From NCBI GenBank assembly GCA_000091205.1, contig AP006491.2: a stretch of DNA of 64,000 nt; one strand, given 5' to 3'. Shown piece by piece: positions 1,942 to 59,170 of this stretch. Under the pieces are notes generated by a model. It had not been told where the DNA came from, ran no database searches, and saw only the letters and a list, made by a program, of their open reading frames with translations. The stretch comes from Cyanidioschyzon merolae (taxonomy: Eukaryota). How positions within the stretch are numbered: the first letter of the stretch is position 1; each line of letters begins with the position of its first letter. Made by a program: the position numbers and the translations under genes.

Positions 1942-2855
1942 GATTTCAACTCAAATGCGTTCCGCATCTCGGTGCGTGTCATTGAACGCTTTTCCGTAGT
2001 GTATAGCAGGAGCTGGAAATCACGATACAATATACCCCATATTTCGTGGACGAACGGCCTTTAGGATGTATTCTTTACCGAGGAGTGCAAGGAGGATAGC
2101 ATGCGTCCTTCAGGTCAGTTATTGCCCAGTACTCAGATGGTGAAGAACCCTGAAAGAAAGCAGGATACGCGCTCCGCGCCAAAAACCGATATGCTCACAG
2201 CGTGCTTGTGGTAAATAGTAGGAAACGAGTCGTTGATCACTGTGTAAGGTAAGCAAAGGCGGCGATAGCGGCCGCCACGTGCGTCTGTGTCGCTCAACAG
2301 CTTATTCGTGTGGTCCTGAAAACACTGGTATACAGGCGCAAAAACGTTGTAGTTTACGAACGGTCATCTTCCATCGAAATCGCACCTACAACGTTCCGAG
2401 AACGTTGCGATGAGTATGGAGCGCAGGGGCGTCGATATGTTTTTTTTCAGTCGATGAGGCCTTCTTCGGATGAATCGGTCGGGGTGTATATGGGTATTCG
2501 CGGGGTAGGCAGCCCGTTCTACGAAAGATCGAACCCGAGGTGAACGACGACATCATCATCATTATCTGCTCCAGCTGCAGTGGGTTCATTTGACGGCCTC
2601 AGTTTCGCTCGTCGAGAAGGCTGATACCACAGCATCGATCACTTTGTCGAATCATTAAAGACTTTTCCCTGGAGTCTCGCGACGTTCCTCAATTGGTAAA
2701 CGTGGTATTTCATCATTCCCGTTGCGTTCGAGCTTTTGCCGATTCTATCGCAGTAGAGCTGTTTATCATTCCTGCATGTTTTACTTGGTTCAAGCCCATT
2801 AAAAAGAATGTTTTCTATTGTGGAACTTGATGCTCGCTTCACCGGGCGAATTTGT
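1942..2855 (+). repeat. Dispersed repeat family 'R2', copy 1 (about 0.9 kb, non-coding)
   Basis: About 70% DNA identity to 11452..12345 over its whole length. Shared blocks include agcaggag..aaatcacgat, gcgctccgcgccaaaaa, gtgtgRtcctgaaaMcactgg, catcttccatcgaaatcgca and cagtttcgctcgtSgagaaggYtgataccacagca. Short ORFs on both strands are conserved equally, which argues for conservation at the DNA level. Confidence 0.65.
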
Positions 2856-2919
2856 CTGTTTGATAGAACGTTTACGCTGTACTTGGGATCTAGATTGCGC
2901 GATGGATATACGCTTTCGG

Positions 2920-3522
2920 GAAAGCGTCCATAACGCTCCACCTACCTCCAAGTTCCATTACTCATACCTCTTCTTGGATACACTGGTCACTTCGCACGTT
3001 CTTTCGCACTCCGAGTGCCCGCCCTGATCGTCCGCGATAGCGCTTATACCGCTGGTGCGGGTACAGCACAGAGTCAGAACGGCTTTGCCATACCACTGAG
3101 GATATCGGACCGAGGAATGCTTCACCTGACACGGAGTCGGGGCTCATAATCAATCTAGGAACGAGCAAGTTGTGCTGATAGCCTTACTGCTCGCAACAGC
3201 GCGATGCGATGTTACAGGAGCCCACTGTAACCAGGATGACCTCAGGACGCATTATACGCGCTCCGGGTCTAAGGATAAACTGCGTTTCGGACGAGTTTCT
3301 GCTCAGATCTCGCCACAGCACCCGCCAATCTGGAGAGCATAAAGCACGAACCTTGCAGACTCGTCCACATCGCGGGACCTTACGCCTAGAAGGTGAACTT
3401 TCGACCGTTCGGAAAGCTTTCCCCCTTCAATGCTTACCGTTCGAGGGGGAAAGAAATTGTTATCTCGTTGCTAGTTCGCGGCTCGTTTCTGTACTCTTTT
3501 TTCTGCGTTACGCTCGATCACA
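2920..3522 (+). repeat. Dispersed repeat family 'R4', copy 1, containing a conserved hairpin
   Basis: Collinear similarity to 20120..20735 (cgtccgcgatagcgcYtata.., gccataccaSWgag, cgaggaatg, ..cgcctagaMgKtRaactttcg..). Hairpin at about 3416..3460 is ctttccccct-[17 nt]-agggggaaag. The homologous hairpin in copy 2 has a 7-bp stem tttcccc/ggggaaa with a similar loop, a compensatory change that preserves the stem. Confidence 0.65.
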
Positions 3523-10754: not shown

Positions 10755-11138
10755 CTAGCTCCAAGCGCCGTTCCATGTGCTCAGCAAAATGGAAAACGTG
10801 TCGCGATCATACGGTAAATGAATACCGATGTGGAGGCGGATTCTAGTCGTTTTCGACCGGCCCATTGCTATCGACTTCAGCTTATCTTTGCATTCATCGA
10901 GTCTGAGAGGTTGCCCCACAAAGTTCGCTCGTGTTTGTTCCTCGGGCCTCGTCTTGAACACCGCACATCTCCTGGTATTGATGGTAGGGTTAAAGTCTTG
11001 GTTTACGAACTGCATGCATTCAATGACGCTTATTGATCGCACCGGTGCAAAGAGTCCTCGAACCGGTATCCTCTGTGCCACGACACTCTCGTTATTGTCC
11101 CGTCGGCAAAGCACCTCTTCTCGCGTATCTCCCCTCAT
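10755..11138 (-). mobile_element. 3' fragment of the TnpB/Fanzor-like element family (RuvC-III region only)
   Basis: Translation FVNQDFNPTINTRRCAVFKTRPEEQTRANFVGQPLRLDECKDKLKSIAMGRSKTTRIRLH aligns with the C-terminus of the ORF at 23135..24133 (FVNRDFNAVINLRRCAVLEKRSPDSTRGNFVGQPIQVELYEKKLEAVVSGWSIETGRRLY) and with the copy at 45.6-45.9 kb. Confidence 0.5.
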
Positions 11139-12345: not shown

Positions 12346-12899
12346 GAGGGTGTCACCTTACAGTGAAACCGGTGCATTTTTTCGTCTTTCTTATGCAAAT
12401 CCTAGTCCCTCCGTGTAGGTCCTCACACAACGGCATCAACAATTGCTTTCATTTTAAAAAATAAGGAATGAGCATGAATGCACAATTCAGGAGATCGGAA
12501 TGCAGAAAAGCCAGCGGAGCGCTGACAGAGCAGCAAATGATACTGAGAGCGCGAGTTCGAGGACTCCTTGCACTAATGAGTTCAGAAAACGCCTAGAAAT
12601 GGAGGGAGGTAGCGAACCGAGACTTTAACACCGCCACTAATATCAGGACATGTGCGATGCTGACGACGATACCCGAGATGCTGAGGCGATCTAGTTTTGT
12701 GAGACAGCCTCTCAGGGTTAGAGCGTACAAGGAGAAGCGAAAACCGATAGCAAGCGGCTGGTCAAGAAACGTCGGGAGGCACCTGCGAGTGGGTAGATAT
12801 ACTTACTCTCTATCATTGTGAAGCGTTTTTTTGTTTCACTGACGATCTCTGCACATCATTCACCCATATAAGAATCAAATCGAACGGGTCTGCGGACAC

Positions 12900-20119: not shown

Positions 20120-20735
20120 TAACCGCGCGTTGTGGGGTTTCCATCGTTCCGCGCCCTCCTCGCAAGTTCCGCTTCCCATACGTTCCCTCGGAGGTACCGA
20201 TTATTTTCAAGTTCGACCGTGTGCCGACTGCCCGTCGCGAGCGTCCGCGATAGCGCCTATAGCGGCGGCGCGGTCGTAGCATAGACAGAGAGAACCGACA
20301 TGCCATACCAGAGAGCGCATCGACTCGAGGAATGTCACGGCTGAGTCACGGTCGAGGTTCATGATCATTCTGGGAGCCTGCAAGCTGCGCTGGCAGACCT
20401 ACTGCCTGCGACAGCGCGAATCGATATCCTAGGAGTCCACTGCGACCAGGGCGACGCCCAGATGCAGCTTAACTGTCCCTAGTCCCAGAATGAATTGCTT
20501 TGTGGACGAGTAGCACAGGTTTCTTTCAAGAACGCGCCGCTGGGAGGGGCATGAAGCACGAGCCTGGCAGACTCGTTCGGCTCGCGCTACTTTCCGCCTA
20601 GACGTTAAACTTTCGGAAATACGGAAAAAATTTTCCCCTTTTAATGTTTAATGTAGACGGGGAAAGAAATCGATAGCTCGTTGCTCGTGACTCGTGAGTC
20701 TCTTTCCTTTTTTTTCTAAATAGCGCGGTTGAGAC
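20120..20735 (+). repeat. Dispersed repeat family 'R4', copy 2, immediately 5' of the Fanzor-like element
   Basis: Collinear with 2920..3522. Conserved hairpin at about 20626..20670 (tttcccc-[20 nt]-ggggaaa). Confidence 0.65.
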
Positions 20736-21017
20736 GCGCAATTCAGAGATCTGGCAGTCATGAGATATGACGCGCTTGTCGCCGTTGAAGGGAGACACGA
20801 TCCAAACCTTTATGATCCAGCAGTAAAGTAAAAGTTCTATTTCCGTTGAAGTCGTAGCAAACTGCAGTTTTCAGTTGAATCGTGTTTCAACCCTCAAATA
20901 AGTGTATTCAAGTCCTTTTTCGCGGTTTATAGGAGAAGCGTTCAAAGAGCGCCCTTTTTCAAAAAAAATAAAAAAGGAAATGTTATCAAAAACCAAGTCG
21001 ACGATCCTGGAGGCCAA

Positions 21018-21359
21018 GTGTCGCTGGCTGCCAGAAAAAACAAAAAACAGTACCGAGTCCAGAAGAAAAGAAAGAGAAGAAGGACCGAAAGGAGGGAGGT
21101 CCTACGTCGAAGGCTGCAAGAAAGACCACACTACAACGAACTGGTTATGAAAGCCTGTCTTCTTGAACAGATCAAGGTTCCGTGCAAGAAAAAGTTACGA
21201 GAGTCCATTCGAAACCGTTTTGAGCCGAACTCCATGACTATAATACAGGTGTCGTCAGGACTAATGCATTTGGCGGGGGAGATGTATCGCGAAGTGACGC
21301 ACATGGAAACGGTCCAGCTTCCGAACGAGTTTTCGACGAGACCTTTATTCGTCACATGA
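21018..21359 (+). CDS. Element ORF1: basic, NLS-like protein (KKRKRRRTERR). Its TGA stop overlaps the ATG of the nuclease ORF (ATGA)
   Basis: The ORF is conserved in copy C (44013..44501, MHIAKEMYRNVTHMETVEVPDEF..) and copy B (33303..33581, minus strand). The start codon is uncertain: the track start is GTG, and a further ORF at 20902..21150 in another frame may belong to the same protein. The ATGA overlap is present in both copy A and copy C. Confidence 0.4.
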   Translation: MSLAARKNKKQYRVQKKRKRRRTERREVLRRRLQERPHYNELVMKACLLEQIKVPCKKKLRESIRNRFEPNSMTIIQVSSGLMHLAGEMYREVTHMETVQLPNEFSTRPLFVT

Positions 21360-24133
21360 CGATTGGTACAGCGGAAGCGCGGAGGGAAAATGAACGCGTG
21401 CACGTCCTGCACGAAAAACACCTCTTTTACAGCTTCGAGGGTACTCGGTATACAGGTGACGCGGATATTTACATGTACGGGGCGATGAAGTACCTGACGA
21501 ACCTGAAGAACCATGTGACGATGAACCTCGAACGTTTCATGATACGCGCCGTGTTTGCGCTGTACCCGGGAATCTCACGCAAGGGGATATGGGCGATTAT
21601 CAATGGCGCCACGAACGATCGCAGGCATGAAGATGAGGTCGAATTTGTCGAGAAGAAGGCGTCAAACGAGAGCACGAATGAAGCTTCTGTAATCCGTGCG
21701 GCTATGCAAGAGCACGGCGCAGTCATGGGGCTACCGAATCCAACAGAAAAGATGTCAGAGTTAAAAAAAGATAAGGAAAGGTACTATCGCCTCATCCTGC
21801 GCTATTTTGTGTTTCTGAATCGTGAACTCGAACGCAAGGCGGAGATGAAGCTGAGTGAAGAGACAAATGAAGAGTGGGAGAGACGGAAGGCTTTCCTAAT
21901 GGGGAAGCAGTTAAACGTGGTTCCGTTGTGCAACATCAAGTAGTATTTTGTGAGTATCGATTCAGGCGTCCTTTACGGCATCATGAAGGAGATCAGTCCG
22001 GGGTTCAATGTTAGCAGGGAGGACTTCATCGGTGAAAACCGGGAGACGTACTGGAAGAGTATCTTCGATTTCAAACGTCTCAAAGTCAGCAAACAAAAGT
22101 TATTCACTGGGATGATCGAAACCGATGGCGTAGCCATGTGTGCACACTATCGGCGGTTGAAGAAAGAGTGTCCAGTTCCACCCTCGGCTGCACCCGTGAC
22201 GAAGGATGAAGAAAACAAAGAAGAGGATCCTGCGATGCAGGAGGTGGAGGATAACGACTTTGTCGTTGACATTACGAAGGATGAAGATGAGAAGACGGCG
22301 GATCCTGCGACGCAGGAGGTGCAGGATAACGGCTTTATCATTGGCGCGGCGAAGCATGAAGAAAACAAAGAAGAGGATCCTGCGACTCAGGAGGTAGAGA
22401 ATAACGACCTTGTTGTTGACATTACGAAGGATGAAGATGAGAAGACGGCGGATCCTGCGACGCAGGAGGTGCAGGATAACGGCTTTATCATTGGCGCGGC
22501 GAAGCATGAAGAAAACAAAGAAGAGGATCCTGCGACTCAGGAGGTAGAGAATAACGACCTTGTTGTTGACATTACGAAGGATGAAGATGAGAAGACGGCG
22601 GATCCTGCGACGCAGGAGGTGCAGGATAACGGCTTTATCATTGGCGCGGCGAAGCATGAAGAAAACAAAGAAGAGGATCCTGCGACTCAGGAGGTAGAGA
22701 ATAACGACCTTGTTGTTGACATTACGAAGGATGAAGATGAGAAGACGGCGGATCCTGCGACGCAGGAGGTGCAGGATAACGGCTTTATCATTGGCGCGGC
22801 GAAGCATGAAGAAAACAAAGAAGAGGATCCTGCGACTCAGGAGGTAGAGAATAACGACCTTGTTGTTGACATTACGAAGGATGAAGATGAGAAGACGGCG
22901 GATCCTGTGATGCAGGAGGTGCAAGATAACGACCTTGTCGTTGACGCGACGAAGCATGAAGAAAACAAAGAAGAGGATCCTGCGACTCAGGAGGTAGAGA
23001 ATAACGACCTTGTTGTTGACATTACGAAGGATGAAGATGAGAAGACGGCGGATCCTGTGATGCAGGAGGTGCAAGATAACGACCTTGTCGTTGACGCGAC
23101 GAAGCATTAAGAAAACAAGAAGGCGGATCCTGCGATGCAGAATGTGCAGGATAACGACTTTGTCGTTGGCGCGGACCCTGGGAATACGAATATCATAACC
23201 ATCGCTGTACCCAAGCGTGCGGAAGATGGTACTGAAGGTAATTTACGTCAGAAAGACATGCGTCTTTTGAGATTCTCGAGGGCAAGATATTACCGAGAAT
23301 CCGGTATAATGAATGCGAGGAAGAAAATCGAGACTTGGAATTCAGGAATGAAAGAGCGCCTGGAAGCTTTGAGCGAGGTGACGAGCCGCGGAGCGGATTA
23401 TGAAGCTTTTCGGAGATTCATGGAAGTTCGTGTTGCCCATTGGGATGCGCTGTGGAAGGAGTATACAAAGCCCAGTTGGGCTCGTCTGCGAATGAATCTG
23501 TACGGTGTGAAGCAGCGGGCGTTTGCGAATTTTTTCAATCAGTTGAGCGCCCTGAAGGAGGATGAAAGTCAGAGGCTCGTAGTAGCATACGGAGCAGGGC
23601 GATGGAAGACCCAAAAAGGGACTACGCCAGCTCCAACGACAAGAACGTATAAGGAGTGCGCACGGCGTTTTGCCTCGATACCTATAGACGAGTTTCAAAC
23701 ATCGTATACACACCATGAACTGAGGTGCACACTCCAGAGGGCCGAGATGGAAAAGTGCCAGACGAACCCTGAGGATATGAAAAAGTACGGACCGCTGACG
23801 GAAGAGCAAATGGAAAGGAGGACGAAAGTTCGAAGATTATTTGTATTAGTAAGTACAACCGATGACGGCAAGAAACGCATGGAATTCGTGAACCGTGACT
23901 TTAACGCCGTTATCAATCTAAGGAGATGTGCGGTGCTGGAGAAAAGATCTCCAGATTCGACAAGAGGGAACTTTGTTGGACAACCTATCCAAGTCGAACT
24001 ATATGAGAAAAAGTTGGAAGCAGTAGTGAGTGGCTGGTCCATAGAGACGGGGAGGCGTCTGTACGTCAGTTGGAGACTTCTTGTCAAGGGCGGGTTTCTC
24101 GCCACTACTGTACACTGCTGTCGTTCGACTTAG
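21356..24133 (+). pseudogene. TnpB/Fanzor-like RuvC-nuclease ORF (about 925 codons) interrupted by two in-frame stops (TAG 21941..21943, TAA 23108..23110)
   Basis: A single reading frame runs across 21356..21943, 21950..23110 and 23135..24133. RuvC-I-like motif: NDFVVGADPGNTNIITIAV. TnpB 'YTSQ'-like motif: IPIDEFQTSYTHHELRC. RuvC-III-like motif: FVNRDFNAVINLRRCAV (the D-x-NAA-x-NI pattern of TnpB/Cas12/Fanzor). The TAA lies where every other repeat unit has GAA. Confidence 0.65.
22230..23107 (+). repeat. In-frame tandem repeat, 75-bp unit (25 aa), two alternating subtypes forming a 150-bp higher-order repeat, about 11.7 units
   Basis: Units DPA(M/T)QEV(E/Q)DND(F/L)VVDITKDEDEKTA alternate with DPATQEVQDNGFIIGAAKHEENKEE. 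The unit resembles the sequence just before RuvC-I (MQNVQDNDFVVGADPG). This periodicity generates the long antisense ORF at 22100..23107. Confidence 0.85.
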
Positions 24134-24249
24134 AACGGCGGTGGTGGCTTGTCCATTAGCACGCGTCAACGCAGACTTAGGTGCCCGACGCTTCTTGGAT
24201 ACGCGCGCCGCCTGTAATGAACTGAGGAAACACCAGCAGCACTGGCGTC

Positions 24250-28622: not shown

Positions 28623-30599
28623 TCACTTGCGCCCAGAGACGAAGAATTGGAGCACGACGTAGCTGCACAGACGGTAGAATGCGATCATTGCGATGAGTAT
28701 GCCCGAGTTCATCCAGATATTCTTGAACTTGACGTCATAGAATTCAAGTACCTGTGCGCCATTCAACTGAATCGTATCCCCGACAACGTTCTCTGAGAAG
28801 CCCGTTTGAGAGCCGAAATTATTTGCCATGAAACTTCCAAACCCGTAGGTGTGTAATGAGATGTAACCAATCCAGCGGACCCACCAGCCGATCTTATTGA
28901 AAGTCGCGAAAAACCCACAGGTCAACATATAGGCACCGTAGACAGCAGCTCCCAGCGCGATTGCCAGGATCGCGATCGGCACGAGGATGCTGATGAGCAT
29001 CATGAGCGCCTCTGCAACCGCAAGCGCTAGGAATAAATTCCAGATGAAGAAGAAGAAACGGCCGGCTGTTGGCGTGAGTCCCACCATCCAGTATACGATG
29101 GACGAGTTCACGAGCGAGATGAGGAAAACCGCAGGAATGGAGACGAGGGTGTTTGCGATCATCCAAGAATCCACGCTATAGAGGCCGTTTCCGCGCTCGC
29201 GCAAGAACACAAGGCGCTCTTCGATGAACATCACGACGGTGCTGACAGACATGAAAGTCAGAAAAGCCGCAACGAAAAACAAGACGCTCACGATATCTCG
29301 AAGCTGGCTTTTGCCCAGCCGCAGGTACACGAGGCCAACGAATATAGACAGAGCCACATACATCGCCATACGCAGCAGGACGGCAGCGGGGTTACGTCGG
29401 TAGTTGAGGGCGTTCCGGCGGGTAAGCACTTGCACCTGATGCCAGCGAGGCACTGGCTTCACCTCAATACTCTGGCTCTGCTGCTCAGTCTGCGTCGTTG
29501 CGCGCAGTTTCTCAAGTTCCGCATCGAGAACCTTCTTCTCTTCCGACTGTGTCCACGCGTTGCTAATCTTTTCCACTTGCTCCTCGCTCGCAAAGTCTGA
29601 ATTGATACAGTCCAAGAAAAAGTCGGCTGGATTCTCAAGGTTTGGAAGTGGATACCCAATTTTCTCGAAATACTTCACAGCATGGCTGGTTGGCCCAAAG
29701 TATACAGTGCGCCCTCGAGAAAGGAGCATGAGCTTATCGCTCAGTGCCAGAACTCGGGCAGCCGGCTGGTGGATCGTGGCAACAATGGTTACGCCCATGG
29801 CAGCGAGGTTCCGAATCGAGACCATGAGATGAAAGGCGGCGGCTGAATCGAGGCCAGAGGTCGGTTCATCGAGAAAAAGGATGCTGGGCAGGCGAAGAAT
29901 CTCTACACCGATTGACAGGCGCCGCTTTTGGCCACCAGAGATACCTCGGAAAAAAGGCGAGCCCACCAACGTATTCTGCGCATCCTCTAAACCGAGTGTA
30001 CGCAGCATCTGGTCAACGCGGTCTTCGAGTTCAGACTTGGACACACTTGGACCCAGCTGCAAGGTTGCTGCGTAACGAAGCGATTCGCGAACTGTCAGTG
30101 AACCATACAGTGCATCTTCCTGCTCGACAAAGGCGTGAATCTGACGCCAGTTGGTTTGCTCACGGGGTATGTCGTTGACATAAACCGGAGTCTGGAGGCC
30201 AACCTGGTGCTCTATTCTGTCAGACAATGCAGATAAAAGGGTAGTTTTTCCGCTTCCACTCGGTCCCATGACGAAAAGCACTTCGCCGGGGCGCACCACA
30301 CCGCCAACGTTGTTAAGCAGTACCTTTTTGGTTGGCGAAGCCGACTCTATATCCGTTTTGGACACCTTCTTGCCAATCTTGAGAGGGACCTCGAAGTAAA
30401 CGTCCCGCCACCAGAGTATAGCACGTTCGTCTTCAGGAAGCTTGTCTCCATGTTGACCGAGAAATACGGGAAGTCTGGTGATGTACTGCGAAGTCCCTGT
30501 ACCGTGGCTGGACAGGGAAGCGAGACGCGCTTCGATATCATCTCGCTCCGAGATTTCCCGCCCCCTTTCGATGCCTTTGTTTTGATCTAAGAGTGTCAT
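28623..30599 (-). CDS. ABC transporter, ABCG/White-type half transporter
   Basis: Walker A GPSGSGKTTLLSAL. Q-loop. Signature ISGGQKRRLSIGVE. Walker B LFLDEPTSGLD. H-loop ATIHQPA. A six-helix ABC-2 type membrane domain. The first ATG is at 30599 (the track start at 30620 is GTG). Confidence 0.88.
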   Translation of the reverse strand: MTLLDQNKGIERGREISERDDIEARLASLSSHGTGTSQYITRLPVFLGQHGDKLPEDERAILWWRDVYFEVPLKIGKKVSKTDIESASPTKKVLLNNVGGVVRPGEVLFVMGPSGSGKTTLLSALSDRIEHQVGLQTPVYVNDIPREQTNWRQIHAFVEQEDALYGSLTVRESLRYAATLQLGPSVSKSELEDRVDQMLRTLGLEDAQNTLVGSPFFRGISGGQKRRLSIGVEILRLPSILFLDEPTSGLDSAAAFHLMVSIRNLAAMGVTIVATIHQPAARVLALSDKLMLLSRGRTVYFGPTSHAVKYFEKIGYPLPNLENPADFFLDCINSDFASEEQVEKISNAWTQSEEKKVLDAELEKLRATTQTEQQSQSIEVKPVPRWHQVQVLTRRNALNYRRNPAAVLLRMAMYVALSIFVGLVYLRLGKSQLRDIVSVLFFVAAFLTFMSVSTVVMFIEERLVFLRERGNGLYSVDSWMIANTLVSIPAVFLISLVNSSIVYWMVGLTPTAGRFFFFIWNLFLALAVAEALMMLISILVPIAILAIALGAAVYGAYMLTCGFFATFNKIGWWVRWIGYISLHTYGFGSFMANNFGSQTGFSENVVGDTIQLNGAQVLEFYDVKFKNIWMNSGILIAMIAFYRLCSYVVLQFFVSGRK

Positions 30600-30715
30600 A
30601 CGAAGATTAATAGTATCCACGACGATTTAACTTTCGTAGAAGGAACGTATGTGTTGTGCACAGTATTGGACACGGAATCAAAACACAGTAAAAAAATCAG
30701 ATTTGAGAACCGGGG

Positions 30716-30890
30716 GTGCTATGTGATAGTGTGAGACACCGGGGCGCGCGCGGAGGTACTGTGAGACTCCGGGGTGCGCGCGGTGGAGTCAAGCGTCGCG
30801 CGCGATCCGCCGCCGTCGATCCGCCGCCGTCGATCCGCCTCCATCGATCCGCCTCCATCGATCCGCCTCCTCCGGCGCGTCTCGTGAGGC
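30716..30890. repeat. Promoter-proximal tandem repeats: a 28-bp unit x2, then a 13-bp unit (ccgYcgatccgcc) x5
   Basis: gtgagacaccggggcgcgcgcggaggtact / gtgagactccggggtgcgcgcggtggag, followed by ccgccgtcgatccgccgccgtcgatccgcctccatcgatccgcctccatcgatccgcctcc. It lies about 100-270 bp upstream of the ABCG start at 30599. Confidence 0.7.
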
Positions 30891-32425
30891 ACCGAACAAA
30901 ACAAACTAGTCACAAACTATTTATTAAAGAACAACTATCTTAAACACCCACACACCACGCCTGCCTAAGAGGTCTAGCTTTTTCCGGAGAAGCTCTGAAA
31001 GTGGGTTAACGCGGGGTGTCTAAGCGACGGGGAAGGAAGCCGACGACACGGACCTTGACCGCAACGAACGAAGGCGCGGAAGCAGTAGCACCAGAAAATA
31101 TTGACGAGCATTCTGAGCAGTCATCCGCCCCTCCCGAAACAACGCTGCAGGTTCGGGCGCAAATACTGGATCCATCCTTGAATTCGGGCTCAGTTTCACC
31201 TTCTACCTTGAGTACCTACCTCAACTTTGGAAACAATCTCGGCGGATACTTTGGAAGACAGCTGGCAGTATGCTCACTGTCGAAAGTGGAATAAGCGACT
31301 TGCCCGCCTATGTGTTTGGGGAGCGGATACGAAGCCGCTGAAAGGCGGTTTGCAGACTGTTCCCAATGGTTAAGGGTAGCTTCACGCGTCCGGCAAGATA
31401 AAGGTCGCATTCGAATCGACCTTGACTAATGTACTTTTGATGCTAACTTCGTGCTGCGGCAGACACGCAGTGAACGACTGGAATGCAGGAGGCAATGGTG
31501 GCATGTGCTCTCACACACCCCGTGGAAGCTGCGTCTAAATCGACAATGTATCTCTGGAGTACCGCGGCGTTACTGCTATTCGGTTATGCGCTACGACTCG
31601 ATAGGTTTCGCATCATGGAATATTAGCGGGATCGCCTCGGTATTGAACTACGAGATATCGAATTACCAGTACAGTAATGAAGAACTGATACAAGTCGAGG
31701 ACTCTACAATAGGAAAAGAGACCCAACGGGATACGGAGAAGGAGACACAAAGGCCTCATGATCCACCTAGATGCAAAATAACCAGAGAAAGCAGCTCCGG
31801 AAAGAGCGCGAGGAAGAAGACCAACAAGGAAAAACAGAAGAATAGAAAAAAGAACGCCCAAACGAGCCCATCACGAGTGATCCCCCGAAAAAGCACCCCT
31901 GCGGGAACTCAAGAAAGCCGTCGCCAAACCCAGTCACCTACTCACAGCGCTGAAGATCCGAAAAGCCGTGCATGCAAATCTGTAGACCAACTGGCACGCG
32001 AGTTTGTAGATGGGAATCAGAAGATTGCCACAGAACTGGGACGGCTGGCACCAGAACGCAACAGCTGCAAACCTTAGTACCTGAAACGACGTATCAAAAC
32101 CCAGATTGATGAATGCCACCGACTCAACAAAATCGTCAACCGCACCGCCATACATGCCAACGCCGGAGACAAGGAAGCGATGGCAGCGCTACCGGCGCTA
32201 CCGGCGCAACATGAAGAAGCTATCAAAAGAAAGAACAAACTTCCCAGAGAAGACAAACGAGAGCATCGAAACCGCAAAATCGCCTCCCTGACGAAATCTA
32301 TGCTGGAGAGCACCAACGAAGATGAGACCTAGCGCTCCATTCGATCGAGACTGGACCCACCAAAAAAGTGTCTGGGGCTCACACCAATCGTTTATGAGGA
32401 AGCGCTGAGGACGGAGCGTGCCTCA

Positions 32426-32857
32426 GTGAATGAGGCCTGGATAGACCACGGGACAGAGCTGCATGAAGACGCAACTGGGCACTGCCAAGACCCAATCTAT
32501 TGGCACCAGTATGCCGCAGAACTACCGCGCCTCGAACCGGTACCGGAATGGAACGACCCAATCTTCTGGCCTGAATCTGTTCGGGCCCTGTTAAGCTCAT
32601 GCAACCGCAAAACACCTGGCATTGACGGTATCGCTGCCGAGTGGATGAAACTGGTGATCCCAAAATACGAGACAACAGGGACACCATCGATACCACGCCT
32701 CAAGTCGACGCCCGTTGTGGTACGGCAACGCCGTTCTGTCTCCGTGCAGCGACCGCACCGGCGCTATAGGCGCTATTGCTGTCGCTTTCGGCAGGCACTA
32801 GGCACACACGATAGGACGTATGAAACGACCAGAATATCCGAGATGAAGTATAGGTAA
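32426..32857 (+). pseudogene. Fragment of a reverse transcriptase from a non-LTR (LINE-like) retrotransposon (N-terminal RT motif only)
   Basis: ..VRALLSSCNRKTPGIDGIAAEWMKLV.. matches the conserved K-x-PGPDGI motif at the N-terminal boundary of the RT domain. No further RT motifs follow, so the copy is truncated or degenerate. Confidence 0.4.
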
Positions 32858-32965
32858 TGTACCATGGAGGTAGGTGTAGATCGATGGATACTTCACCGCG
32901 CACTGAAAAAACACACACAAAAAAAAGTAAGAAAAGAAAAATGCGCAGAATCGGAGAACGCTGGC

Positions 32966-33760
32966 CTAAGTAAACGTTTTGTGAGTGGAAAAAAATTTGA
33001 TAATCGCCCATATCCCCTTGCGTGAGATTCCCGGGTACAGCGCAAACACGGCGCGTATCATGAAACGTTCGAGGTTCATCGTCACATGGTTCTTCAGGTT
33101 CGTCAGGTACTTGATGGCCCCGTATTCGTAAATATCCGCGTCACCTGTATACCGAGTACCATCGAAGCTGTAAAAGAGATGTTTTTCGTGGAGGACGTGC
33201 ACGCGTTCATTTTCCCTCCGCGCTTCCGCTGTACCAAGCATCAGGTGACGAATAAAGGTCTCGTCGAAAACTCGTTCGGAAGCTGGACCGTTTCCATGTG
33301 CGTCATTTCGGGATACATCTCCCCGCCAAATGCACTAGTCCTGACGACACCTGTATTATAGTCATGGAGTTCGGCTCAAAACGGTTTCGAATGGACTCTC
33401 GTAACTTTTTCTTGCACGGAACCTTGATCTGTCCAAGAAGACAGGCTTTCATAACCAGTTCGTTGTAGTGTGGTCTTTCTTGCAGCCATCGACGTAGGAC
33501 CTCCCTCCTTTCGGTCCTTCTTCTCTTCCTTTTCTTCTGGACTCGGTACTGTTTTTTGTTTTTTCTGGCAGCCAGCGACACCTAGGCCACCAGGATCCTC
33601 CACTTAATTCCCCATAGGTTTCCTACTTTATTTTTTTGAAAAGGAACGCTCTTTGAACGCTTATGTCATATAATGGGAAAAACACTTGAATACACTTGTT
33701 TGAGGTTTGAAACACGAATGAACTGAAAACTATGCTTTGCTACGACTACATCGCAAATCC
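32966..33760 (-). mobile_element. TnpB/Fanzor-like element, copy B: a 5' fragment (ORF1 plus the N-terminus of the nuclease ORF), then truncated
   Basis: ORFs at 33303..33581 (MSLAARKNKKQYRVQKKRKRRRTERREVLRRW..) and 32966..33241 (MLGTAEARRENERVHVLHEKHLF..ISRKGIWAII) are over 90% identical to copy A. The 5' leader matches copy A at 20850-20990. Homology ends after GIWAII. Confidence 0.65.
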
Positions 33761-34899
33761 AACTTGTTCGTTGGATCTACACACTCTATCTCGCCATGCG
33801 ATGCCGTTGTCATCCGTTCGACAAGGCCCCCAGCCACAGTGAACGCGCCTAATCTGGAGTCTCATGTCCCCCTAACAAGAAAACGTATTGTCAAGCTCGC
33901 GTTTCCCTTCAACGGCTACATTCGCGCCGTATCTCGTGACGGCCTGATCGCCCAGGTGCGCGTATCGAGTGCGCCACACAGAAAAAAGAACAGAGACTCT
34001 CGATTCACGAGCATGTAGATTTTGTTTTCCCTTTCGACGATAAACTTTGAAAGGAGAGAAAGCTTTCCGTATTTTAGAAACTTTACCTTTTACGCGTAAG
34101 ATCCCTAGAACTGTAAGAGTCTGCTAAGCTGGTGCTCGGTGTTCATCTAAAGTGGCTGGAGCAGCCGCGAGACCTGAGCAACTCGTCCCCAGAGCGGTTT
34201 ATTCCGGGACCAGGGGTGCTTAGGCAGCGTCTGCACGCCGCCCTGGTCGCAGCGTATCCAGTGGTAAGCCTAGACTGTTCTGTCTACGTGCCATGACCGC
34301 AGCGGCGCAATGGGGGCTACGGCGGGTGCTCACGGCATGCATTCGACACGCGATAGGGCGTGCGAAAGGACAATTATATCCGAGAAGAAGAATGGCTAAT
34401 GGAACGTGAAAGTAGAGTGCAACATGGTGGACGCTTTCCCCGAAGTCGCTGGCGGCGCGTCTCCATTCCATGCGAAAGTGCTGCACCGAGTTACTGGTAT
34501 CGATGACCCGAGTTCGATTAAACTTGAACAGTATATTGCTCGCCCTCTTCCTGCTTTTCGAATTTTAAAACTTTATTCCGATGGAAAGCCGCGGCATTCG
34601 AAAAGGGGCTATTGTGACTTACGCATTCTAACGAATATGCGGATCCTCGGCAGCGTTTTTGGAATGGCCTCCTCAACGCGTTACCACGGGAACTCTTTCA
34701 GTTCCGGGACGCGAGCTCATTTGCGAGACCCCCCGAGCGAGACTTCTTAAAATACCCGATACGATGATCCACCGCATACGCCCAAGTCTCCAAGCTTCCC
34801 TTTTTCTCACGATAAGTATGCTTCAACCATAAATGTTTCAAGGCGACCCGTTGACGCAGCAATGCACGTCACTAGATTGATGAGCAGAAAAATTCGACT

Positions 34900-43341: not shown

Positions 43342-43964
43342 CTCCGTCGTGCCTGTGCAGCTACTGAAAGCTGATAAGCACAGGACAAAAGTTCAGAGGC
43401 TACAAACACGTCTTTGCATCCACGTCCGAGCACACATTCGTCAGGGACGCTGCAAAATAGACCCCCGATGGATCCGCCTCCGATGCCGGGGAGTGTAGGC
43501 CCCGGTGCGCTTCGACGGCCTTGTTTCGTTGTTCGCAGCCGCAGCTCGATGCGCGATCTCCGGCGGATGCGCGCCTGCCGTGGACGTAACGGTCGCGCGA
43601 TGCTACTGGGCCTTGCATCGCATACGACTCAAATGTACAGAAATGTTCAAATTGATACGGCGATCGTTACGAGCGCGTGTGCGTGCGATTTGGCTGTGAT
43701 GGAAAAACGTGTCCATGGACTGTGGATGGCCCAAATTGCGGGATAGGTGAGCATTGACATTCGGGAAAGCGTCCATCATGCTGCGCAATACTCACGCCCA
43801 AGTTCTATTACCTATGCTTCCTATTTTCTATATGGTGCGCTTGATATTTGCACCTCCAGATCTGACATGCATTGAACACGTCGCGCATGTCGCCGCTTTA
43901 GGGAAACGCGATACTGATCATCAGCGTGACGCTCGAACGAACAAGTTGTATTTGCGTCAAATTC

Positions 43965-45941
43965 GTACCAAAGTAGAGTGTTTATCCCAATCGTGTTTCA
44001 ACCATCAAGTACGTGTATTCAAGTGGTTATTTGCAGTTTGTATCAGAAGCGTTCAAAGAGCGATATAAAAAAATCAAAAAATGGAAAGTTTCGGAAGAGG
44101 AAGAGGAGGATCCTGGAGGCGGAGTATCACCGGCTGGCAGAAAAAAACAAAAGACAGTGCAGAGCGAAGAAGAACAGGAAAAGACGAAGAAGCAAAAAGG
44201 AGAGGCTCTACCTCAAATGCTGGAAGAAAGACGACGGTGTGACGAGATGGTAGTGAAAGCCTGTCTTCGTAAACAGAACAAAGATCCGTACAAGCAGGCG
44301 TTGCGGGAGGCCATTAGAAACCGTGTTGAGTCGTACTGTAGGAGTATTCGTAACGCTTCTTTTGGACATATGCATATAGCGAAGGAGATGTATCGTAACG
44401 TGACGCACATGGAAACAGTCGAGGTTCCGGATGAATTTTTCAACGAGAACTTATTCGTCGCTTGCTGGTTGGCACAGGGGAAGCTTCGACGAAAACAATG
44501 AGCGAGTGCATGCTCTCCACGAACATTGCGCCGAATTTCGCTTCAGCGATACTCGATACAAGGATGTCCGGCATATTTACACCTACGAGCCGATGTAGTA
44601 CCCGACGAACCTGAGGAACCATTTGACCAAGAACCTCAAACGCTTCGTGATACGCTCCATCTTTGCACTATACCCGGGCCTCTCTCGCAAAGTGATTGAG
44701 GATCATAGTCGATGGCATCGTTAACGATAGTAAGAATGAAGAGGAGAACGAATTCGTTGAGAAGAAGACATTACACAGGGGACAGAATGAAGCTTCTGGA
44801 ATCCGTGCGGCTATTCAAGAGCACCGTGTGGTCGTGGGCCTGTTCAACCCAGCAGAAATGGTATCCGATATGGAATAAGATTAAGAAAGATGCTATCCCC
44901 TAATCCTGCGGTTTTTCGTGTTTTTGGACCGAGAACTCGAACGTAAGGCGGAGATGGAGCTGGGTGTCGTAAAATGAAGAGTCGGAGAAACGGAAGGCTG
45001 CCCTAATGGGAACGCGCTTCAACGGCGTTCCATTGTGGAACATCAAGTCGCACATTGTGACCATCAACTCCAGAGTCCTTCACAGCTTAATGAAAGAGGT
45101 CACCCCAGTGTTCGATGTCCATGAGGAGGAGTTCAGCAAAGTGACAAGCCGCGGAGCGGACTTTCGAGCCTTCCGGGAATTCATGGAAGCTCAGGCTGCT
45201 CATGACTGCGAGATGTGGAAATGGTCCGGAAAGCCCCGGAGGGCCCGTCAGCATGTGAACCTGTATTGTGGCAAACAGCGTGCATTCACCAACTTCTTCA
45301 ATCAGTTGAGCGTCCTCAAGGTGGTCAAGAGTCAAAGGATTGTAATATCGTACGGAGCAGGGCGCTTTGTACCCGGAAGACGGAGCGCACCCGCTCCATC
45401 GACACGAGCGAACAAGGAGTGCGCATACCTGTTTATTCCATTTCCGATAGATGAGTTCCGAACGTCCTATGTGCACCATGAGCTGAGATGTGCATTCCAG
45501 AGAATCGAGTTGGAGAAGTGTCAGCAGAGCCCTGAGCAAATAGAAAAATACTGTGCGCTAACGGAAGTGCAAATGGAAAGGAGGGCGAAAGTTCGACGGC
45601 TACTCGCATTAGAGAGTACAATCAACGGCAAGAAACGTACGGAGTTTGTGAATCGTCAATTTCACGCTGTTATCACAATAATGAGATGTGCGGTGCTGGA
45701 GACGAGACCCGAGGAGTTGACGCGAACCATCTCTGTGGGGCAGCTCCTCAAGGTCGCATTGTACGGAGAGAAGTTGAAACCAGTAGTTGCAGGCCGGTCA
45801 AAAAAGGCTGGGAGGCGTCTGCACGTCGGTGGGAGACGTATTGTCTACGTCGGGCGGTTTGCAGCTCGCCACCACAGTACACCCGTTATGCAGCGTACGC
45901 CGACTGAAACGCAATCGCTTCTTTGTCACACAATTTTGTAA
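43965..45941 (+). mobile_element. TnpB/Fanzor-like element, copy C: a degenerate copy lacking the RuvC-I and tandem-repeat region
   Basis: ORF1 homolog 44013..44501. The nuclease-ORF homolog 45006..45941 jumps from ..VHEEEF directly to SKVTSRGADFRAF (equal to copy A at about 23380), a deletion of roughly 1.35 kb. It keeps IDEFRTSYVHHELRC, but RuvC-III has degenerated to FVNRQFHAVITIMRCAV. It also carries extra stops and frameshifts. Confidence 0.65.
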
Positions 45942-55953: not shown

Positions 55954-58641
55954 TCATTGCAGCGTTGACGGGACCGGCGAGCGGCTGAGCGCACGTGCCA
56001 CATACCCAACCCGGTCGGCAATAATCCCATCGACCTGCCATTCTATGAGCTGCATCGCACAGTCGGGTACCGTGTTCGACCGGCCATAGCACATGACCAG
56101 GAGTCGGTACTTGTGATGCGCTAGCCGAATCAAGGAAGGTCCCGCTGCCAGGAGGATCTCGTTGAAGAATACCACGCCGCTGAGGCGTGCCTGCGAGGCG
56201 AACTCGAGCGCGCGCTCAGCTCGCAACCGGCGGGGGTCACTGTATACGACGTCGCCGTCACGGTCCTCAGAACAGAGGAAAAAAACGCGACAAACGTTTT
56301 GCTTGCGACGCAGCAGCAAACAGACTTCAGGATCGAATGAAAGGAACGAAAGGCGAGAACCAAGGCGAGCTGAGGCGTCTGCACCCCCGCGACGTACGGG
56401 CGCGAAAGCGACGCTGAAGACGGTGTCTAGTACGCGGTCTACGAGGTAGTTGCGCTCGGGGGCCGGCACCTGCTCTCGACCTGAACCCTCGGGAAGTGGA
56501 TATTTGATCTCCACAAGCAGGTGGACAAACGCTGGCACCTTTCGCAGCACGTGCTCTAAGGTCGGCATAGAGTCGCGGATTACCGACTGGTGTTGTCGAC
56601 AGTGGACACAGAGGTGGTATCCGCTGCGCGTTGGCTTCGCTTTTTCGGGTGCAGCGCTTGCCTCAGCGGCGCTGCTTCCATCGAATTGGCTCGAGACTTT
56701 TGACGACTTGTTCGACTCGCTGGGTAGTGTAACGAGCGACGCTGCCACGGACGCACCTCTCGACGGATCGCACCCGAACTCGCTAGTGTTCAGTGCCCAG
56801 GGCGCCGAACTGTGATCCATATGCCTGTTCAGGGCTTGGAAGCGCTCGGTTGGAGACGCCCGCTGCGCGTGGACGAAGGTGGTGACACCCTGATCCCGGT
56901 CGGTTTCAAGTGAGCTTGGGAAATCCAAATCTTTTCGTCGCAGCAGCAACGCCGATGCTCGCTTCCATTCCTCGAGATCCATGGTGAAGATGGGGCGCGC
57001 TACACAACAGCGACTTGGTCTGGCGTTCTGCGGACAGCGAGGGCGATGTTGCGGCCTGGGCACGCCGTATCCGCGTATGAAGCAAGCTGCGGAGGAAGGA
57101 GATTTCTCGCTGTCCTCGTCGTCGTCGTCGTCGTCGTCGTCGTCATCGTGGTCGATGTTGTCGTCCAGAGCATTGGATAGATAGGGCAGCTGCTGCCCGC
57201 CCCAGTCTTGGGAGATTTCCGGGCCGCTTGGGCAAGGATATACGCTGACCGAAGAGGCACGCTGCGGAAACAGGCCCACCTGCAGAGGCTCAGACTTTGG
57301 CTCCCAAAAATTTGGCGCTGCTGACCAGTCCGCTTCGAAGCCGGACGGTCCAAAAATATCGGGTGGCGGAATCGATGCTGAAGCGCTAACCATATCTGGT
57401 GGCGCTCTCTGAGAGCTAACCAAGCGGCCAGAGGAGGCGGTGACGCTTGTGCTACCGAGCCTGCGCTGCGGGTGCGGTAGCCTCAGGACTGCATCGTGGT
57501 GCACCACCGGTACTCCGTCTCGAGTGAGCTGAACATCGAGCTCGACCGCCCGAACATTCTTGCCTCGGATAGCCGCAAGAAAGCTGAGCAACGTATTCTC
57601 CTGCAACAACGACGTTGTCTGTTCGCCGTCTCCCCGATGACCGATGAGCGGCGTGCAGAGCAGCATCGATTCTTCCGCGGCAGCAGCGACGGGAAACGGA
57701 GCTTCCTCTGCAGAGTCTCCACTGAGCGTCGGGTCCGTTGCAGCGAAATGCGCCAGAATGAACCTGGGCGGCTTACTCCCGGGTCCACGAGTTTGTTCGA
57801 GGGCAGCGTTGAACGCAGCGCGGCTGTGCTGTCCCTGATACGGCTCGATCAACATGTACGAAAAGACAAATTCACCAACAACACGACCAAGAGCGGTCAC
57901 AATTGGCCTTTTCATGCGGAAACCGAAGCGATTCCCGTCTGCTGCGCGATGATCATCTCTGAGGAGGAGCTCCGACCCGAGCACCGCCGCTCGACCAAGA
58001 TACATGCGTTCGCTAACATCCGATCCCGGCTGCAGTGCGAAGAAAGCCACGACAAAATCGAAAGCATGAGGTGTGCCCTGAAACGCCACTGTACCCGACG
58101 GCGTTTGGTGTTGGCCCTCTTGAGGCAGACCAGCGCCCCGACGCGCCTGCAGCTCGGCGAACTCTGCAGTTATGGACTCGGCGTATGGCTGCGCAGGCTC
58201 CCCAAGCGGTGCATGCAGCCGCACTCGCCACTTGTTCGCGCCAAACGAAGTCATGGAGACGCGTTCAGCAAAACTTTCGAGGCTGACTAGCTCGGCGTCG
58301 CTGATAACAAAGTCGAGCTCAAGGTCGGCGCCAACTACGGACCAGCCACAGCCAGCACGAAAGCGCACACTTGACGCCACACACGGAGCTGCTGGGGCAC
58401 CGAGTGTCACGCGCAAAGAGCGCACACACTGCACGCCGGCGTCGTCTACCCACAGAGTGCCGGTCACCGGAGACCGTCTCCCTTCCATATGCGGTGTAAA
58501 CCAGTCGCCCGGCCTCGAAGCGGTGCCCATGAGCACGGAACCCACACGGTGCTCGTGCCCCGACTCCATTGTAAGTGAAGTGCAACTCTCCAACTGCTCT
58601 TCCTGAATCGTTCCAAGAAGTATACGGTTTGTTCGAGCCAT
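55954..58641 (-). CDS. Protein with a glycerophosphodiester phosphodiesterase (GDPD) domain, a long N-terminal extension and a poly-Asp tract
   Basis: GDPD core LIGHRGDGEQ..ENTLLSFLAAIRGKNVRAVELDVQLTRDGVPVVHHD. An internal acidic run DDDDDDDDDDDE (the (tcg)n tract at about 57117-57150). The first ATG is at 58641. The track start at 58731 would read through the (CA)n microsatellite. Confidence 0.8.
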   Translation of the reverse strand: MARTNRILLGTIQEEQLESCTSLTMESGHEHRVGSVLMGTASRPGDWFTPHMEGRRSPVTGTLWVDDAGVQCVRSLRVTLGAPAAPCVASSVRFRAGCGWSVVGADLELDFVISDAELVSLESFAERVSMTSFGANKWRVRLHAPLGEPAQPYAESITAEFAELQARRGAGLPQEGQHQTPSGTVAFQGTPHAFDFVVAFFALQPGSDVSERMYLGRAAVLGSELLLRDDHRAADGNRFGFRMKRPIVTALGRVVGEFVFSYMLIEPYQGQHSRAAFNAALEQTRGPGSKPPRFILAHFAATDPTLSGDSAEEAPFPVAAAAEESMLLCTPLIGHRGDGEQTTSLLQENTLLSFLAAIRGKNVRAVELDVQLTRDGVPVVHHDAVLRLPHPQRRLGSTSVTASSGRLVSSQRAPPDMVSASASIPPPDIFGPSGFEADWSAAPNFWEPKSEPLQVGLFPQRASSVSVYPCPSGPEISQDWGGQQLPYLSNALDDNIDHDDDDDDDDDDEDSEKSPSSAACFIRGYGVPRPQHRPRCPQNARPSRCCVARPIFTMDLEEWKRASALLLRRKDLDFPSSLETDRDQGVTTFVHAQRASPTERFQALNRHMDHSSAPWALNTSEFGCDPSRGASVAASLVTLPSESNKSSKVSSQFDGSSAAEASAAPEKAKPTRSGYHLCVHCRQHQSVIRDSMPTLEHVLRKVPAFVHLLVEIKYPLPEGSGREQVPAPERNYLVDRVLDTVFSVAFAPVRRGGADASARLGSRLSFLSFDPEVCLLLRRKQNVCRVFFLCSEDRDGDVVYSDPRRLRAERALEFASQARLSGVVFFNEILLAAGPSLIRLAHHKYRLLVMCYGRSNTVPDCAMQLIEWQVDGIIADRVGYVARALSRSPVPSTLQ

Positions 58642-58675
58642 GAATATCGTTAATGATTCGAACGCCAGCAATAAC

Positions 58676-58694
58676 CACACACACACACACACAT
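58676..58694. repeat. (CA)n microsatellite in the 5' leader of the GDPD gene
   Basis: cacacacacacacacacat, read directly from the sequence. Confidence 0.8.
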
Positions 58695-58789
58695 AGACAC
58701 CGTATTTTTCGGATAAGCGAATCTGGCGCATACCGATGCAATCGGATCAGGCGCCAGCATCGCAGCATCGATGCGGCTTCGTATCCGGG

Positions 58790-59170
58790 ATGCGCGTAGC
58801 CGCTGCGATTCCGCGATGATGGACTAGATGGATGACGGGATCGAGCGATGATGGACTAGATGGATGATGGGATTCTGCGATGCTTTATTAGACGGATCAT
58901 GGGATCGAGCGATGCTTTATTAGACGGATCATGGGATCGAGCGATGCTTGACTAGATGGACGATGGGATTCAGCGATGATGGACTAGATGGATGATGGGA
59001 TCGAGCGATGCTTTATTAGACGGATCATGGGATCGAGCGATGATTGACTAGATAGATGCTGCGATTCAGCGATGATGGACTAGACGGATGATGCGATTCC
59101 GCGATGATGGACTAGATGGATGATGGGATTCATCGATGCTTGACTAGATAGATGATGGGATTCCGCGATC
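58790..59170. repeat. Minisatellite, about 30-31-bp unit x about 12 (gcgatgatggactagatggatgatgggatYS variants)
   Basis: Head-to-tail units with variants (gatgctttattagacggatcatgggatcgagc / gatgatggactagatggatgatgggattc). It lies between the GDPD 5' end and the 3' end of the EFL1-like gene. Confidence 0.8.

Follow-up and report, generated by a model that had tools for sequence, protein, structure and literature searches.

A variable-number 25-codon repeat in the CMe-1A Fanzor1 family of Cyanidioschyzon merolae, and its long array in a decayed copy

The stretch of Cyanidioschyzon merolae DNA considered here (64,000 nucleotides of contig AP006491.2, all of it referred to below as the window) carries a plus-strand transposon of ~4.0 kb, copy A (20140-24147), in which a 25-codon unit is repeated in tandem directly ahead of the RuvC-I motif of a nuclease coding sequence. 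The SerB and MetRS proteins encoded beside copy A are exact matches to BAM79981.1 and BAM79987.1 of C. merolae 10D. The array is very probably an old variable-number linker repeat of the CMe-1 Fanzor1 elements, on which a recent and neutral amplification in situ has been superimposed in a dead copy. The limits of the element come from blastn with the published CMe-1A consensus: consensus nt 70-2190 correspond to 20140-22268 at 82.6% identity and nt 2122-3145 to 23100-24123 at 89.6%, and at the right end similarity to the related locus L001 reaches ~24147.

CMe-1A is the one Fanzor1 family that Bao and Jurka (2013, Mob DNA 4:12; PMC3627910) described in C. merolae; they classed CMe-1 as Fanzor1 and reported ~150 copies with ~80% identity to a consensus of 3169 bp. 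According to them the protein has 734 aa, terminal inverted repeats are lacking, and the 5' 635 bp is common to the short element TE-N2_CMe. Their paper makes no mention of a tandem repeat. Judged by sequence likeness, copy A is a member of this family, known since 2013: it shares with the consensus the host, DNA that is 83-90% identical, the TE-N2_CMe 5' module, the lack of terminal inverted repeats and the company of many decayed copies, and, measured against the 734-aa consensus, its coding remnants have 78-84% identity over aa 114-734 and 53% over an N-terminal remnant that is frame-shifted. Alignments of the element ends revealed neither terminal inverted repeats nor target-site duplications, in agreement with Bao and Jurka. 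The departure is in the repeat, with a single unit in the consensus protein, 13 in copy A and 1-6 in relatives, and the ~900-bp excess of copy A over the 3169-bp consensus is due to its 12 extra 75-bp units.

Tandem Repeats Finder was run on the window and the array was then cut in a 75-bp register. In copy A the program found one array, 22198-23168, readable at period 75 (12.9 copies, 73% matches) or at period 150 (6.5 copies, 96% matches, score 1670), and outranking by far every other tandem repeat in the 64 kb. Register cutting gives 13 exact units of 75 bp (25 codons), free of indels, at 22190-23164 (+). An earlier model-made annotation that used the letters alone, here the sequence-only reading, had placed about 11.7 units of 75 bp at 22230-23107; the unit length stands and the count was a slight undercount, while the interval lies inside the array with both ends clipped, 23107 being the base before an in-frame TAA. 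Along the array the order is U1, then b and a four times over, then b', a'', b' and finally U13, with b being VDITKDEDEKTADPATQEVQDNGFI and a being IGAAKHEENKEEDPATQEVENNDLV; U1 is an edge unit and U13, the last, directly adjoins VGADPGNTN. That two subtypes alternate strictly, to give a 150-bp higher-order repeat, had been seen already and is borne out both by the unit cut and by the period-150 reading. Four of the 150-bp b-a dimers (22265-22864, +) are identical at 150/150 positions in all pairs and look to be the product of recent amplification in situ; the fifth dimer matches them at 141/150. The near-identity of neighbouring units, earlier taken as a sign of recent expansion, thus holds for the central units, where the identical dimers make up 600 bp. 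The peptide specified is acidic (33% Asp+Glu, pI 4.05). On the opposite strand a 335-aa open reading frame (ORF) runs through the array (22100-23107, -); it was rejected as a gene, as it exists only through the repeat unit having no stop in that frame.

From what was the unit derived? Every unit aligns to CMe-1A consensus nt 2117/2122-2196, corresponding to aa 405-430 (VAKHEEKKEADPATQEVQENDFVVGA), directly before the Asp of GADPGNTN, and on this alignment the unit is, as had been proposed, a duplication of the native segment before RuvC-I. What an extra unit contributes is an acidic linker plus a β1-like strand, 'DNDFVV', without the catalytic Asp.

Copy A is a pseudogene, having lost its start and gained two in-frame stops and at least one frameshift. 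Its N-terminal coding remnant (20985-21332, +; consensus aa 1-116; 53% identity in frame +2 by tblastn with the CMe-1 consensus protein) is in another frame than the rest, and reads IKNQVDDPGG where the consensus starts MEKEVEDPGG. Comparison of the sequences places the frameshift at 21330-21333 (+), in a run of four Ts that has five in the consensus (GAGTTTTCGAC versus GAATTTTTCGAC), and the switch of frame between the tblastn high-scoring segment pairs falls at 21323-21332. Further along come an in-frame TAG at 21941-21943 (+; NIK*YFVSID versus consensus NIKSHFVTID, the asterisk being the stop) and, in U13, an in-frame TAA at 23108-23110 (+; KH*ENK, with KHEENK in the other units) that splits the array from RuvC-I. 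Three long ORFs, 21356-21943, 21950-23110 and 23135-24133, are in one common frame, and the last of them (+, 332 aa, RuvC and NUC parts) is 84% identical by tblastn to consensus aa 407-734. The TAA is not a sequencing error since two orthologous metagenome contigs, L002 and L003, which represent the same insertion beside the same SerB, have the same stop; their identity to the window is ~97.5% (~2.3-2.5% difference). The sequence-only reading had the repeat expanding inside the nuclease ORF. With the start gone, the frame shifted and TAG 21941 and TAA 23108 in place there is no intact ORF for it to expand in, and because copy A is a pseudogene the functional meaning of that statement was overstated. 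The array is indeed in frame with the RuvC part, though the TAA now cuts it off from RuvC-I.

The type of protein once encoded was assessed by a fold test on P0001, a relative of 752 aa that is 68% identical to repaired copy A, and not on the broken window copy. The AlphaFold model of P0001 has a mean predicted local distance difference test (pLDDT) score of 64, with most of the core at 70-89. Foldseek aligns it with SpuFz of Spizellomyces (9cez, 8gkh) at E ~1e-14 and probability 1.0, and with Parasitella PpFz and Guillardia GtFz at E 1e-13 to 1e-11, Cas12f being next. By this modelled fold the CMe-1 protein is a RuvC nuclease of Fanzor/TnpB type, and the earlier wording 'RNA-guided-nuclease-like' is well matched by hits to SpuFz, PpFz and GtFz at E 1e-14 to 1e-11. 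What it has in common with the solved Fanzor1 structures (SpuFz1 8GKH/9CEZ, GtFz 9CER, PpFz 9CF0/1) is the overall fold, the order of WED, REC, RuvC and NUC, and a split RuvC with its RuvC-I Asp and RuvC-III Asp and, to go by motif position, probably a Gly at the canonical RuvC-II position plus a downstream Glu. It differs from them in that sequence identity to the CMe-1 relative is only 11-17% and that none is reported to have a tandem-repeat linker before RuvC-I. Local Pfam scans of the window ORFs and relatives gave nothing relevant, and a hidden Markov model built from the family alignment had zero matches among Protein Data Bank sequences even at E<=10; as sequence methods give nothing, the Fanzor homology is visible only at the level of fold. 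The sole domain label for the family is a weak precomputed match to PF26935 (DUF8286), which no paper found in the literature search mentions. The family itself has 3915 representatives at 50% identity (E<=0.001), with typical members of 600-650 aa, and a further protein search with the family alignment yielded close fragments of the same family only, with no added diversity.

The catalytic motifs can be followed in copy A. RuvC-I is GADPGNTN (23168-23191, +), with the Asp codon GAC at 23174-23176 and D-P-G kept in most rows of the family alignment. The canonical RuvC-II position is occupied by Gly in VVAYGAG (23579-23599), and ~33 residues downstream is a conserved Glu in VDEF(R/Q)TS, which in copy A reads IDEFQTS (Glu at 23690-23692, +); this is a candidate relocated RuvC-II Glu, assigned from motif position only and not by structural superposition. 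In Fanzors an inert residue stands where the canonical RuvC-II Glu would be, and another conserved Glu lies downstream (PMC10530073). The RuvC-III Asp (23897-23899, +) is in NRDFNAVINL, NRDFNAAINI in relatives, and R724, D725, N727, A729 and N731 of this motif are nearly invariant in the family alignment. A CCCC zinc finger is not evident between the Glu and the RuvC-III Asp (window 23700-23890), a stretch that holds just two Cys and two His (HH..GC...KC) and lacks any CxxC pair; in the corresponding segment of the distant members P0052-P0054 there are at most two Cys and no CxxC pair. TnpB has a CCCC finger at this position. So does the NUC domain of SpuFz1 (PMC10432273). As for an omega RNA, Rfam reports nothing in the element and the family alignment, at 150-bp resolution, displays no extra conservation at the 3' end.

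Where does the array sit in such a protein? In the P0001 model its residues 373-471 come between a WED-like β-hairpin (350-370) and RuvC strand β1 (479-484). The counterpart of that hairpin in copy A, the last before the array, is at 22103-22159 (+; FTGMIETDGVAMCAHYRRL), its two strands being residues 350-358 and 362-370 in the model. Together with the placement of U13 this bears out the position directly N-terminal to RuvC-I that had been given for the repeat. In this alignment-based prediction the P0001 array is without secondary structure and has a pLDDT of 23-31, and on a charge-hydropathy plot the window array falls well inside the disordered region, with a mean hydropathy of 0.366 where the boundary is 0.504. 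A disordered linker, which had been suggested as something to look for, is what both of these predict, and of the two predicted alternatives disorder is better supported than repeated β structure.

The repeat is not a peculiarity of copy A. Among 54 related proteins the unit recurs with an exact 25-aa spacing, with 1 to 6 units per protein in 46, while homologues at <=39% identity have the native segment only. In 80 metagenome loci the anchor-to-anchor distance follows 80+75(n-1) bp, and grouping of the loci by their 3' flank gives 42 distinct genomic places, within each of which the unit number is constant: 16 of the 42 have one unit, 18 have two, four have three, one has four, two have five, and one, the copy A locus, has 13. 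Ten single-unit loci (L017, L018, L025, L029, L031, L037, L044, L045, L052 and L056) have instead an anchor distance of 68 bp and form a subfamily in which 12 bp (4 codons) of the unit or linker are deleted. In all the other arrays examined, identity between units is 67-89%, a divergence similar to that between the copies, and identical units are found in copy A only. Since the units elsewhere are so diverged, the repeat is an old, family-wide feature of variable number and copy A the site of a recent local amplification. Recency, which the sequence-only reading had suggested for the expansion as a whole, hence applies to the 150-bp dimers of copy A and not to the repeat itself; the repeat is far from absent elsewhere, with 1-6 units in other copies. 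In 2-unit arrays the within-copy and between-copy identities of units are all ~0.80, and the order of duplication and transposition cannot be read from them.

In these respects the array behaves as coding minisatellites do, that is, as variable-number tandem repeats (VNTRs) in ORFs: there is an exact 75-bp unit, a multiple of three, with variation in number between paralogues that preserves the frame, amplification has been at the level of dimers, and divergent edge units bound a homogenised centre. What sets it apart from them is that the host gene is a transposon-borne RNA-guided-nuclease gene and that the longest allele is in a pseudogene. By its sequence the 75-bp array is a coding minisatellite/VNTR, with variation between strains at the copy A locus only suggested, by L002. 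In that contig U1-end, b, a, b' and U13 follow one another unbranched, which suggests a 5-unit allele in that population, a collapsed assembly being equally possible. L003 agrees with the window at every position of b' and at 74/75 of U13, and it breaks inside the repeat.

Selection has left its mark on the family ORF, the overall signature being that of purifying selection, and its strength along the ORF can be crudely gauged from the entropy at codon positions 1, 2 and 3. In the 201 bp after the array, which include RuvC-I, the values are 0.376, 0.366 and 0.667, and in the native (last) unit 0.442, 0.404 and 0.595; in the extra units they are 0.579, 0.480 and 0.541, with no third-position excess. 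This comparison of sequences argues that the extra units are weakly constrained. With regard to timing, the amplification is expected to be younger than the TAA stop because the 600-bp block of dimers has zero differences and the contigs that share the stop differ by ~2.3-2.5%; from these sequences we infer that the stop came first and the amplification later.

The history that we favor would then be as follows. The founding event, an old one in the CMe-1 lineage, would have been a 75-bp duplication of the 25 codons upstream of the RuvC-I Asp. Units would then have been gained and lost by replication slippage or unequal recombination to give the 1 to 6 diverged units per member, and such gain and loss keeps the reading frame because 75 is a multiple of 3. 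The extra units would behave as a poorly constrained and probably disordered acidic spacer between the WED β-hairpin and the RuvC β-strand. Copy A would have died by loss of its start codon and by gaining the frameshift and the two in-frame stops, and only afterwards would in-situ amplification have turned the b-a dimer into four identical copies and given the array its 13 units. This final step would be a neutral event at the level of DNA in a pseudogene, and not an adaptation of the nuclease.

What tells against this history is best taken with the rivals that draw on it, to which should be added that the codon-position test is crude, as it pools paralogous units, and that slippage or unequal crossing-over has been deduced from how the units are arranged. 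The first rival has the repeat as a selected functional module of the Fanzor, an acidic WED-RuvC linker of tunable length, with the long array a relic of adaptive expansion; it might, for example, mimic nucleic acid or act as an auto-inhibitor, serve as a spacer to fix how the domains are placed, or form a repeated β-hairpin domain. Arrays of 2-6 units at many independent insertion sites are in keeping with it, as is the maintenance across units of the acidic composition and of a DP..Q.V.DNDFVV core. The longest open frames are moreover multi-unit (L001, full length at 819 codons, has 4 units and L027, 772 codons, has 3), so that copies which kept their coding capacity at least tolerate extra units, and in live ones these might be functional. 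A single-sequence AlphaFold prediction of the 386-aa window ORF does give periodic β-hairpins, one regular hairpin per unit, at low confidence (pLDDT 40-57); it was run on the single sequence because MAFFT had spread the window array across the RuvC columns of its relatives, and is weakly informative. Yet the extra units, unlike the flanking RuvC-I region, have no third-position excess, the alignment-based model gives them pLDDT 23-31 and no structure, and a single unit is all there is in 16 of the 42 places, in the published consensus and in all distant homologues. For the long array in particular, copy A has two stops, a frameshift and no start, and its identical dimers are younger than the shared stop. 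We regard selection for a functional module as unlikely.

Just as doubtful is the idea that in an active CMe-1 Fanzor1 the number of units tunes or auto-inhibits the nuclease, each unit being a decoy β1 without the catalytic Asp; it might do so, for example, by mimicking nucleic acid inside the positively charged channel or through competition between strands at β1. If true, a length-tunable repeat would be a regulatory device undescribed for any TnpB, Fanzor or Cas12 enzyme. A functional role for the repeat is conceivable in copies that are still live, though unsupported.

Could the long array be an artefact of assembly, the true locus having ~5 units and the identical dimers arising from mis-assembled reads? 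The unbranched L002 would be a 5-unit allele if not collapsed, and the three orthologous short-read contigs all stop within the array or shortly past it. An exact look-up found the 13-unit (386-aa) ORF and the window's other Fanzor ORFs absent from other assemblies, so that the count of 13 comes from the 10D assembly only. Set against this, the edge units are distinct and b'-a'' is a further variant of the dimer, both hard to obtain from errors of collapse or expansion, and the break of L003 inside the repeat is what a long array leads one to expect. The window also matches the C. merolae 10D chromosome record, and that genome was finished by Sanger sequencing. Even with a wrong count the repeat itself would be real, as the related proteins and the 80 loci attest. 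An artefact is accordingly a very slim prospect. Scarcely credible is that the gene is live, with its stops read through or recoded, or its interruptions introns, to yield a full-length nuclease with a 13-unit linker: for all that the three long ORFs are in one frame and copy A retains the catalytic D and D and the candidate E, the adjacent genes match annotated standard-code proteins exactly, inspection shows neither stop to be bridged by a GT...AG interval of the right length and phase, a 1-bp frameshift and the lack of a start codon come in addition, most family copies are equally broken, and the copy A ORFs are absent from the protein collection.

With old variation in unit number plus late amplification in a dead copy as the preferred reading, an apparent nuclease ORF with an unusual expansion is resolved as a dead Fanzor1 copy, neutral minisatellite dynamics being the best account of its long array. 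A full-text literature search for 'Fanzor' with 'tandem repeat' yielded no title or abstract pointing to such a repeat, and a variable-number 25-aa linker repeat in the CMe-1 Fanzor1 family appears undescribed, a modest addition to a known family. It marks the WED-RuvC junction as insertion-tolerant in Fanzor proteins, which could interest those engineering Fanzor/TnpB editors with linkers or domain insertions in mind. It is also a handy marker of subfamily history in Cyanidioschyzon populations, and accounts for short-read assemblies of these algae breaking at CMe-1A copies.

Copy A is one of seven CMe-1A/TE-N2_CMe pieces in the window (three large copies, a solo 5' module and small 3'-end fragments). 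Copy C (43698-45883, +), delimited by blastn to the consensus, is a deletion derivative without consensus nt 116-637 and nt 1951-2393. Copy C had been said to lack the repeat region, and so it does, the second deletion taking out the repeat unit and RuvC-I along with it. Its deletion junction (...EFSKVTSRGADFRAF...) is the same as in the metagenome protein P0012, which stands for a cluster of 18 sequences, and because of this shared junction copy C can be seen as a propagated deletion derivative; a nuclease-dead form (copy C/P0012) seems to have spread as its own subfamily. Copy B (32692-34440, -), likewise from blastn, is a rearranged 5' fragment that covers consensus nt 61-1525 piecemeal and has a further 5' piece, consensus nt 70-262, beside it; over 20832-21603 of copy A the two copies are 92% identical. 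Adjoining its truncation point is a region of strong positive AT skew (31000-33000, +0.24 to +0.31), within which a 208-aa ORF rich in K, E, T and Q (31451-32077, +) may be another inserted element. The solo 5' module (2861-3504, +) corresponds by blastn to consensus nt 4-641 at 80% identity and to TE-N2_CMe (PMC3627910), and the small 3'-end fragments are at 10897-11063 (-) and 12515-12714 (+).

Elsewhere in the window an Rfam tRNA match of 47.7 bits to the full model (1781-1884, -) covers 104 nt, more than a standard tRNA would; ARAGORN finds no tRNA in the whole window, and the match may be an intron-containing or otherwise unusual tRNA gene. A 14-bp tandem repeat (30803-30870; 4.9 copies, 96% matches) is just past an ABC-transporter-like ORF (28623-30620, -). 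Just past the end of another ORF (55954-58731, -) is a second array, 58813-59169, of 32-bp units (11.2 copies, 83% matches) with a 96-bp higher-order repeat (3.6 copies).

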